From Shigella phage vB_SsoM_JK08, in sequence record LR877332: a DNA stretch of 64,000 nt. One strand, written 5' to 3'. Below are positions 36,889 through 37,716 of the stretch, piece after piece. How positions within the stretch are numbered: position 1 is the first letter of the stretch; each line of letters opens with the position of its first letter. The translations under genes were made by a program, and so were the position numbers. Under the pieces are notes generated by a model. It made no database searches. It was not told where the DNA came from and saw only the letters and a list, made by a program, of their open reading frames with translations.

Positions 36889-36964
36889 TGGTCGAGGCAG
36901 TAGGGATCGAACCTACGACCCAGGACTTAGAAGGTCCTTGCTCTTCCTTCTGAGCTATGCCTCG
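36889..36964 (-). tRNA. tRNA-Arg (anticodon UCU), CCA encoded
   Basis: manual cloverleaf: acceptor cgaggca/tgcctcg, T-arm gtagg-gatcgaa-cctac, anticodon loop CUUCUAA. Confidence 0.8.
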
Positions 36965-36968
36965 TATT

Positions 36969-37043
36969 TGGCGGACGTGATAGGATTCGAACCTATAACC
37001 AATCGCTTAACAGGCGATCGCTCTGCCATTGAGCTACACATCC
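36969..37043 (-). tRNA. tRNA-Asn (anticodon GUU), CCA encoded
   Basis: manual cloverleaf with 4-bp D stem, GG in D loop, anticodon loop CUGUUAA, T loop UUCGAAU. Confidence 0.65.
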
Positions 37044-37047
37044 AAAT

Positions 37048-37134
37048 TGGTGGGGAGTGGTGGAGTCGAACCACCCGAGTCGCAATGACAATGAATTTAC
37101 AGTCCACACCGCTACCTCTACGGGATAACTCCCC
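37048..37134 (-). tRNA. tRNA-Tyr-like (anticodon GUA), long variable arm, atypical D-arm
   Basis: acceptor ggggagt/actcccc, T-arm ggtgg-agtcgaa-ccacc, anticodon loop CUGUAAA; anticodon stem has 2 G-U pairs and D-arm connector is irregular. Confidence 0.5.
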
Positions 37135-37143
37135 AAATTAATT

Positions 37144-37218
37144 TGGTGGCCCTGGGTGGAATTGAACCACCATCTGGCGATTATGAGTCGCTTGCTTGAA
37201 CCTTCCAGCTACAGGGCC
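37144..37218 (-). tRNA. tRNA with CAU anticodon (Met or Ile2)
   Basis: acceptor ggccctg/cagggcc, anticodon loop CUCAUAA. Confidence 0.75.
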
Positions 37219-37219
37219 T

Positions 37220-37295
37220 TGGTGCTGATTGACGGAATCGAACCGCCGACCTTCTCATTACAAGTGAGTTGCTCTACCTACTGAGCTAAATCAGC
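37220..37295 (-). tRNA. tRNA-Thr (anticodon UGU)
   Basis: acceptor gctgatt/aatcagc, anticodon loop CUUGUAA. Confidence 0.75.
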
Positions 37296-37300
37296 AAAAC

Positions 37301-37390
37301 TGGCGGAGGCGATAGGATTTGAACCTATGAGTCGCCGGAGCGACTGCCGGTTTTCAAGACCGGTGCATTAAACCACTCTGCCACGCCTCC
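37301..37390 (-). tRNA. tRNA-Ser (anticodon UGA), long variable arm
   Basis: acceptor ggaggcg/cgcctcc, variable stem gtcgc/gcgac, anticodon loop CUUGAAA. Confidence 0.75.
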
Positions 37391-37392
37391 AG

Positions 37393-37466
37393 TCTCCGTG
37401 GCAGGATTTGAACCTACGACATTCTGCTCCCAAAGCAGACGCTCTACCAAACTGAGCTACACGGAG
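37393..37466 (-). tRNA. tRNA-Pro (anticodon UGG), CCA not encoded
   Basis: acceptor ctccgtg/cacggag, anticodon loop UUUGGGA. Confidence 0.7.
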
Positions 37467-37476
37467 TAAATTAAAT

Positions 37477-37550
37477 TGGAGCGGATAATGAGAATCGAAC
37501 TCACATCATCAGATTGGAAGTCTGAGGTAATACCATTATACGATATCCGC
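37477..37550 (-). tRNA. tRNA-Gly (anticodon UCC)
   Basis: acceptor gcggata/tatccgc, anticodon loop CUUCCAA. Confidence 0.75.
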
Positions 37551-37555
37551 AAATT

Positions 37556-37642
37556 TGGTGCGAGAAGTGGGACTCGAACCCACAAGGAAATCATTCCGCA
37601 GCATTTTAAGTGCTGTGCCTTTACCAATTTGGCCATTCTCGC
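37556..37642 (-). tRNA. tRNA-Leu (anticodon UAA), long variable arm
   Basis: acceptor gcgagaa/ttctcgc, variable stem ggaa/ttcc, anticodon loop CUUAAAA. Confidence 0.75.
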
Positions 37643-37643
37643 G

Positions 37644-37716
37644 CTGGGAATAAAGGACTCGAACCTTTGCATCCTGGAATCAAAATCCAGTGCCTTACCA
37701 ACTTGGCTAATTCCCA
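37644..37716 (-). tRNA. tRNA-Gln (anticodon UUG), CCA not encoded
   Basis: acceptor tgggaat/attccca, anticodon stem ctgga/tccag, loop UUUUGAU. Confidence 0.7.

Follow-up and report, generated by a model that had tools for sequence, protein, structure and literature searches.

The 64,000-nucleotide (nt) stretch of Shigella phage vB_SsoM_JK08 analyzed here (sequence record LR877332; this whole stretch is referred to as the window) carries a cluster of ten transfer RNA (tRNA) genes, among them a tRNA-Tyr gene of unusual shape that an earlier note on this DNA, made from the sequence alone, had suspected of being a pseudo-tRNA. This region is a Tequatrovirus tRNA operon with the T2-type arrangement, as is typical for a T-even phage. 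The best explanation of the region as a whole, with a probability of roughly 85%, is a T2-type operon of tRNAs and stable RNAs in which the tRNA-Tyr is functional and counters host defence. Functional evidence for the tRNA-Tyr is drawn from the molecules of phage T6, which is identical, and of the T5 family, which are homologous.

ARAGORN called exactly ten tRNA genes in the window. They span 36889-37716 together, all lie on the minus strand, and run Gln(UUG), Leu(UAA), Gly(UCC), Pro(UGG), Ser(UGA), Thr(UGU), CAU, Tyr(GUA), Asn(GUU), and Arg(UCU), which agrees with the earlier note in strand, order, and extent. The check by tRNA-prediction software that had been proposed for the Asn and Tyr genes came out in their favor, with both called by ARAGORN and Tyr also called by tRNAscan-SE 2.0 in a record that is 99.9% identical. 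Nine of the ten genes match the Rfam tRNA family RF00005 (gathering score 29 bits) at 59.9-74.1 bits, with E-values from 1e-10 to 1e-14; Asn scores highest (74.1 bits) and Tyr is the sole gene under the threshold. Spacers within the cluster measure 0-10 nt and therefore leave no room for an interrupting open reading frame (ORF), so the observation that no seg-type ORF lies inside the cluster holds. The Gln and Leu genes abut directly (0 nt), which marks a dimeric precursor as in T4, and 1 nt separates Pro from Ser. The 3′-terminal CCA had been described as mostly encoded, and eight of the ten genes do encode it, the exceptions being Gln and Pro.

Over the 1.8 kb that surround the cluster, the sequence matches Escherichia phage vB_EcoM-fFiEco06 and many other Tequatrovirus genomes at 99.9% identity, and 443 phage records cover at least 80% of this 1.8-kb query. 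The fFiEco06 record (MG781190) annotates the same ten tRNAs, with tRNAscan-SE 2.0 scores that are lowest for Tyr (51.2 bits) and reach 81.8 for Asn. The ten-tRNA cluster is already known, since the same cluster occurs in at least 443 phage records. It has been annotated in hundreds of Tequatrovirus genomes, the T2-type arrangement was described in 2008, and the defence role of tRNA-Tyr was described in 2024-2026.

The T4 cluster runs Gln-Leu-Gly-Pro-Ser-Thr-Ile, then segB (666 bp, encoding a homing endonuclease), Arg, rnaD, and rnaC. Relative to the T4 set, Asn and Tyr are indeed extra. The further claim that eight genes match the classical T4 set stands for their anticodons; at the sequence level, T4 orthologs number six (Gln, Leu, Gly, Pro, Ser, and Thr, at 85-100% identity), while the CAU and Arg genes share only 47/77 and 50/80 positions with T4 Ile and Arg and are different genes. 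Across the aligned 338 nt, the CAU-Tyr-Asn-Arg block equals that of T2 (AP018813) save one T-stem base in Tyr, and the Tyr gene matches T6 at 87/87 positions and T2 at 86/87. As in a T2-type cluster, segB is absent and CAU-Tyr-Asn-Arg lies between Thr/Ser and the species 2 and species 1 RNAs, and segB is likewise missing from the phages T2L, RB1, and RB3, in which tRNA-Met(CAU), Tyr, Asn, and Arg are present (Brok-Volchanskaya et al. 2008, PMC2330249). Judged by these alignments, the whole block is the T2 allele, standing in place of the Ile-segB-Arg of T4. Because the difference from T4 extends over the whole block, Tyr and Asn are not simple insertions into a T4-type cluster.

The anticodon stems of two T4 orthologs also diverge. 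In tRNA-Gln (37643-37716) all eight differences from T4 fall in the anticodon arm, where most of the stem has been replaced compensatorily and loop positions 32 and 38 have changed from C to U, and the remainder is identical. The anticodon stem of tRNA-Pro likewise differs from T4. The tRNA-Ser gene departs from T4 at its 3′ end alone, with GCCA here (CCA encoded) versus G-TAA in T4.

The Tyr gene is 87 nt long and has the GUA anticodon, A73 discriminator, and long variable arm of a bacterial tRNA-Tyr, features that serve as identity elements for tyrosyl-tRNA synthetase (TyrRS). The 7-bp acceptor stem, 5-bp anticodon stem, 7-nt anticodon loop with U33 and a purine at position 37, 5-bp T stem, and GUUCRA loop are all present in the ARAGORN model. 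The gene is nevertheless atypical in the ways that had been described, with two wobble pairs in the anticodon stem (G27-U43 and G30-U40) and a D stem that pairs poorly in the canonical register. It lacks the canonical 2-nt connector (positions 8-9) between acceptor and D stems and instead has the 4-nt connector UAUC, followed by the D stem CCGU/GCGG. Its best Rfam match is to tRNA-Sec at 30.9 bits, under that family's cut-off of 47.

This architecture is shared by a large family. A pattern scan of IMG/VR yielded 86 distinct Tyr members, and tests of register and covariation were made on 65 distinct sequences. All 86 members have a 7-bp acceptor stem, a D stem of the form CYGU/GCRG, and a D loop of the form A-R-N-(N)-G-G-W-A; the connector consists of UA plus two variable bases (4 nt) in 82 members and UA plus three (5 nt) in the other 4, and the D stem of these 86 phage tRNA-Tyr sequences sits 2 nt further 3′ than the canonical position. 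The two D-stem strands change together, with CCGU opposite GCGG 79 times, CUGU opposite GCAG 7 times (on diverse acceptor stems), and no discordant combination. The 5′ strand was absent from the search pattern and therefore provides an independent test of the shifted register. In the 65-sequence alignment the D stem is 100% paired in the shifted register against 55% in the canonical one, which places a C-C mismatch in every sequence; the D arm drawn by ARAGORN (U10-G25, C11-G24, C12xC23, C13-G22) was rejected on these grounds. The shifted register also puts the universal A14, R15, G18, G19, and A21 in their correct places, and it lowers the cloverleaf energy of the window Tyr from -20.5 to -27.2 kcal/mol, a gain of 6.7 kcal/mol.

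Over the whole cloverleaf, pairing extends to 98.5% of alignment cells, against 41-51% in slid controls, and 18 of the 24 pairs have changed on both sides; the acceptor, anticodon, and T helices are 96-100% paired with compensatory changes. Conserved positions comprise A14, R15, G18, G19, A21, U33, A37, the GUUCGA T-loop, A73, and CCA. The G-U pair 27-43 is common in the family, and that at 30-40 reflects a single C-to-U change relative to close relatives. The D arm that the earlier note called irregular is a conserved family architecture under purifying selection, not decay. The molecule would fold with its D arm in an alternative register, in which a 4-nt connector leads into a 4-bp stem and a loop carrying the canonical A14-R15...G18-G19...A21. 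The shift explains the Rfam miss, the low covariance-model scores, and the inconsistency of ARAGORN, which misses the Tyr homologs in PG7, Ro121c4, and Sf13.

Experiments on the identical and homologous molecules bear on the function of this tRNA-Tyr. The Septu system EcB88 (PtuAB) cuts E. coli tRNA-Tyr in the variable arm at C48/A49 during infection (Chihara et al. 2026, PMC13096335). In the same study, T6 tRNA-Tyr was seen by northern blot and tRNA-fragment sequencing, plating of T6 on Septu was restored by overexpression of tRNA-Tyr or by its SegB-driven amplification, and deletion of the T6 tRNA region raised Septu sensitivity. T4, which lacks tRNA-Tyr, was Septu-sensitive and could not escape, and T2 was resistant to Septu EcB88 (PMC13096335). 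The tRNA-Tyr of the T5-family phages T5 and SP15 neutralizes retron-Eco7, for which the Tyr anticodon and decoding as well as intact stems are required (Azam et al. 2024, PMC11555353), and according to the T5 GenBank record a change of anticodon turns the T5 tRNA-Tyr into an effective amber suppressor. The window Tyr is the same molecule, over 87/87 positions, as the T6 tRNA-Tyr shown to rescue phage.

By analogy with these molecules, the Tyr gene should encode a working class II tRNA-Tyr. The suggestion that it is a pseudo-tRNA fails on its identity to a T6 tRNA that is detected and active and on the compensatory changes that keep its cloverleaf in 65 homologs; mature RNA, whose absence the note had named as grounds for withdrawing its proposal, has been detected for the identical T6 gene (PMC13096335). 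The main selective value of Tyr would lie in sustaining tyrosine decoding while defence nucleases such as Septu and the PtuAB of retron-Eco7 cleave host tRNA-Tyr, and extra supply for a Tyr-rich proteome would be a secondary benefit. On this basis the phage is predicted to resist tRNA-Tyr nucleases of the Septu and retron-Eco7 types better than T4 does.

Several points weigh against this account. Septu also cuts the T6 tRNA-Tyr, at C48, and this tRNA is relatively unstable (PMC13096335), so protection is by dosage rather than by resistance of the molecule. In the pattern used to collect the family, the D-stem 3′ strand and the anticodon loop were specified in advance, which leaves the 5′ strand alone as an independent test. 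The minimum free energy (MFE) structure of the single Tyr sequence is not a cloverleaf (-29.9 versus -27.2 kcal/mol) and its z-score is only -1.1; single-sequence folding is uninformative beside the covariation evidence. A promoter scan found 3 sites where 5.2 were expected in shuffled sequence, which is not significant, and a promoter is not established because matches are no commoner than in shuffles. Finally, an anti-defence role for Asn is pure inference.

Homologs of the Tyr gene occur in 1262 phage records, from Tequatrovirus, rV5-like (about 95% identity), Karamvirus, Phapecoctavirus, T5-like (about 85%), Felixounavirus, Mooglevirus, and Klebsiella T4-like phages. A blastn search of 5426 E. 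coli genomes with the Tyr gene returned 0 chromosomal matches and 273 plasmid matches. The matching plasmids are about 70-110 kb in size and carry phage-type genes (DNA ligase, PhoH, GrxA) and an Asn-Tyr-Thr-Ser tRNA array; in one example (NZ_CP024264, 16053-16603) the Tyr of the array is 92% identical to the window Tyr. This distribution argues that the gene belongs to a tRNA lineage of mobile elements and is not a recent copy of the host tyrT.

Among the features of the cluster, only the shifted D stem with its 4-nt connector may be undescribed: a literature search for a non-canonical D arm in phage tRNA-Tyr found nothing relevant, which is no proof of novelty. The pattern for the shifted D arm with the D-loop length of the family is CYGTAN{2,3}GGWAGCRGNNNNGAYTGTAAAT. 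A scan of bacterial genomes used a D loop of four N instead of two or three and so could not match the family; its 2 matches, on small contigs of metagenome-assembled genomes, are uninformative. A broader and still doubtful proposal is that the tRNA-Tyr of this phage, of T2, T6, T5, rV5-like, FelixO1-like, Karam, and Klebsiella T4-like phages, and of phage-plasmids form a mobile-element lineage with a non-canonical core, in which the connector has 4 nt (rarely 5), the D stem lies 2 nt 3′ of that in every cellular class II tRNA and the altered elbow is an adaptation. If so, defence nucleases that target tRNAs, or modification enzymes, could recognize the altered elbow differently while TyrRS still recognizes the tRNA, and the shifted D arm of phage tRNA-Tyr may deserve structural study.

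The alternative that survives best, although on balance an unlikely one, is that Tyr and Asn serve translational supply alone and have no part in defence: the proteome of this AT-rich phage would need about 1.5 times as much Asn and Tyr as that of the host, and the additional tRNAs would increase decoding capacity late in infection. Across the 90 ORFs of the window (18,989 codons), Asn makes up 6.0% and Tyr 4.6% of codons, compared with about 3.9% and 2.8% in E. coli, and the other eight tRNAs fit classical codon supplementation. The comparison of AAC and UAC usage that had been suggested as a check was aimed at the wrong codons, as the phage uses mainly AAU and UAU. A-ending codons are frequent in the window ORFs, and the Gln, Leu, Gly, Pro, Ser, Thr, Ile2, and Arg tRNAs would read the A-ending codons used heavily by this phage of 35% GC. 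Supply alone, however, accounts poorly for Tyr and Asn, since E. coli is already well supplied with G34 tRNAs for two-codon boxes and T4 thrives without either gene. It also leaves aside that Septu sensitivity tracks tRNA-Tyr, with T4 sensitive, T2 resistant, and the T6 tRNA-region deletion more sensitive, and that the Tyr gene is found at 85-95% identity in unrelated phage families and phage-plasmids, a sharing that suggests a portable selected function.

It is improbable that CAU-Tyr-Asn-Arg is a neutral passenger, maintained by recombination and by homing endonucleases that shuffle cassettes, with no benefit from Tyr or Asn. The block does behave as an alternative allele to the T4 Ile-segB-Arg and SegB homing efficiently removes it when T4 is crossed with T2L; under laboratory conditions the phage can do without the tRNA region (PMC2330249). 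Two of its genes are also nearly identical to those of the unrelated phage rV5 (Vequintavirus), the CAU gene at 74/75 positions (L003:2577-2651) and the Tyr gene at about 95% (L003:2006-2092); given that the CAU gene shares only 47/77 positions with T4 Ile, this indicates that distinct phage lineages have recently exchanged tRNA cassettes. A passenger would nevertheless not be expected to show sequence conservation of at least 99% in hundreds of isolates, covariation that reflects purifying selection on structure, or a measured defence phenotype. Least tenable is the view of the Tyr-like gene as a decaying pseudo-tRNA, or as an RNA processed for a non-translational role, which could appeal to the sub-threshold Rfam score, a tRNAscan score (51.2 bits) below that of every other gene in the cluster, the homologs missed by ARAGORN, the non-cloverleaf MFE fold, and the two G-U pairs of the anticodon stem, and which is largely refuted and very improbable given that compensatory substitutions keep all five helices in 65 homologs, that key tRNA positions are conserved, that the identical T6 RNA is detected and active, that T5-family rescue needs the Tyr anticodon and intact stems, and that the T5 homolog acts as a suppressor.

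Within the favored reading of a T2-type operon with a defence-countering Tyr, the CAU gene also calls for a change of label. Searched against 5426 E. coli genomes, it best matches chromosomal CAU tRNAs that carry the annotation tRNA-Ile, with full-length identity of up to 81.6%, and the phage gene shares with the matched E. coli gene (CAT anticodon) the GGCCC/GGGCC acceptor and an identical anticodon-arm core, GCGA-CUCAUAA-UCGC. Because its best E. coli matches are tRNA-Ile genes with a shared acceptor and anticodon arm, the CAU gene, whose body resembles the host ileX/ileY type more than tRNA-Met, is classed as an Ile2-type tRNA and the Met label given by predictors as wrong. The earlier note had left the choice between Met and Ile2, and of the two the evidence retains Ile2. 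The tRNA is presumably lysidine-modified and AUA-reading, like T4 tRNA-Ile.

The Asn gene is at least 99% identical in 316 records (the rows spot-checked are Tequatrovirus-type coliphages) and is unrelated to the host tRNA-Asn. It is a canonical tRNA-Asn, presumably kept for supply or for an anti-nuclease role analogous to that of Tyr. The preferred 27-bp SegB site lies inside T2L's tRNA-Asn gene, and in T4 x T2L crosses SegB homing removes a T2L region of roughly 1250 bp with CAU, Tyr, Asn, and Arg (PMC2330249). In the window, the SegB motif RAWTSGAAC is found in the Asn gene at 36984-36992. Window-wide there are 7 matches versus 6.2 expected, which is no enrichment, but the tRNA/rnaC region holds 4 of them. 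These four, on the plus strand, fall in T-loop regions, namely of rnaC (36636-36644), Asn (36984-36992), Thr (37235-37243), and Gly (37492-37500), a position that fits published SegB cutting within tRNA genes. In mixed infection the T4 homing endonuclease SegB would preferentially target the Asn gene, and co-infection with T4-type phages would thereby expose the block to SegB homing. A different tRNA-Asn(GUU), of 85-86 nt, is found in other phages (547 records), including PG7 (L005:1878-1962), Klebsiella phage Roth77 (L007:777-861), Ro121c4 (L006:701-786), and many T5-like phages; it has a long class-II-like variable arm, which is unusual for tRNA-Asn, together with G73 and a normal 2-nt connector.

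The unit extends beyond the tRNAs. Where the earlier note described a ten-gene unit, its tRNAs stand, and it missed two stable-RNA genes and a terminator that complete it (Table 1). Homologs of T4 rnaD and rnaC lie directly 3′ of tRNA-Arg. The rnaC homolog has an MFE of -50.2 kcal/mol (z = -4.55) and a T-arm-like hairpin, CCGGG-UUCGAAU-CCCGG. No Rfam family covering the rnaC and rnaD homologs was found around the cluster even at a permissive E-value, which returned chance-level matches only. The fFiEco06 record (MG781190) annotates this stretch as two small 'hypothetical protein' coding sequences, which are probably spurious; annotation pipelines wrongly label the CAU tRNA as Met and call spurious coding sequences across rnaC and rnaD. 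By its sequence, the hairpin that follows rnaC is a probable 3′ end of the tRNA/stable-RNA transcription unit. By analogy with T4, the ten tRNAs, rnaD, rnaC, and the terminator on the minus strand would most likely form one or few polycistronic transcripts, from which host enzymes would mature the tRNAs, with RNase P generating the 5′ ends, 3′ trimming, and CCA addition to Gln and Pro.

Table 1. Features of the tRNA/stable-RNA region in the window, listed in the direction of transcription.
Feature	Position	Strand	Basis and closest match
Sigma-70-like match TTGAAT-17-TATTAT, about 105 nt upstream of tRNA-Gln	37823..37851	minus	Consensus scan, weak
tRNA-Gln (UUG), CCA incomplete	37643..37716	minus	ARAGORN; Rfam 67.4 bits; 65/73 identical to T4
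tRNA-Leu (UAA), class II, CCA encoded	37556..37642	minus	ARAGORN; Rfam 64 bits; T4 identity 86/87
tRNA-Gly (UCC), CCA encoded	37477..37550	minus	ARAGORN; Rfam 65.8 bits; T4 identity 74/74
tRNA-Pro (UGG), no encoded CCA	37392..37466	minus	ARAGORN; Rfam 69.7 bits; T4 identity 63/74
tRNA-Ser (UGA), class II, CCA encoded	37301..37390	minus	ARAGORN; Rfam 62.6 bits; T4 identity 87/88
tRNA-Thr (UGU), CCA encoded	37220..37295	minus	ARAGORN; Rfam 72.9 bits; T4 identity 73/76
CAU tRNA, Ile2 (lysidine) type, CCA encoded	37144..37218	minus	ARAGORN; Rfam 59.9 bits; identical to T2
tRNA-Tyr (GUA), class II, A73, CCA encoded	37048..37134	minus	ARAGORN; below Rfam tRNA threshold; T6 identity 87/87
tRNA-Asn (GUU), class I, G73, CCA encoded	36969..37043	minus	ARAGORN; Rfam 74.1 bits; 100% identical to T2
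tRNA-Arg (UCU), CCA encoded, T2 allele not T4 allele	36889..36964	minus	ARAGORN; Rfam 65.8 bits; identical to T2
T4 rnaD homolog (species 2 stable RNA)	36768..36887	minus	Aligned to T4 misc_RNA rnaD, 101/121 identical
T4 rnaC homolog (species 1 stable RNA)	36623..36761	minus	137/139 identical to T4 rnaC
Intrinsic-terminator-like hairpin (10 bp, 7 G-C pairs), then UUUUU	36549..36572	minus	Consensus scan

Downstream of the unit, two minus-strand ORFs at 36025-36498 and 35336-35899 start with MKSYTQFLNEA and MKTYAEFLTEA, respectively. These starts resemble the N-termini of the internal head proteins ip5 and ip6 encoded upstream (MKTYQEFIAET and MKTFKEFATKT), and the two ORFs may encode further capsid-targeted internal proteins.

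Compared with known clusters, the window stands closest to T2 and T2L (and RB1 and RB3), which have no segB, the same block, the species 1 and 2 RNAs after it, and the SegB-preferred site in Asn. T2 differs in that an ORF replaces tRNA-Thr and a further ORF follows Arg, leaving 9 tRNAs, whereas the window has ten that are contiguous and free of ORFs. The T4 cluster occupies the same place in the genome, with the trna.2-4 ORFs on one side and the e.x ORFs on the other, and its Gln-Leu and Pro-Ser pairs are likewise dimeric; unlike the window, it has segB, lacks Tyr and Asn, has Ile and Arg genes that are about 61-63% identical to their counterparts here, and encodes CCA in 4 of 8 genes versus 8 of 10. 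In T6, the Tyr gene adjoins segB, which can amplify it, and the cluster is without Pro, Ser, Asn, and Arg. Because the window has no segB, SegB-driven amplification of Tyr in cis is unavailable to this phage.

The Tyr molecules of T6 and T5 share the shifted D arm of the window Tyr and its GUC-AUUGC-GAC variable arm. The E. coli tRNA-Tyr (tyrT/tyrV) resembles the phage molecule in being class II, with a GUA anticodon, CUGUAAA loop, A73, CCA, a D region of 19 nt, and a GUC/GAC variable stem. The two part in how that D region is divided, which in E. coli gives 2 nt to the connector, 3 bp (CCC/GGG) to the D stem, and 11 nt to the loop, compared with 4 nt, 4 bp (CCGU/GCGG), and 7 nt in the phage, and in the variable loop, which measures 3 nt in E. 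coli against 5 nt in the phage.

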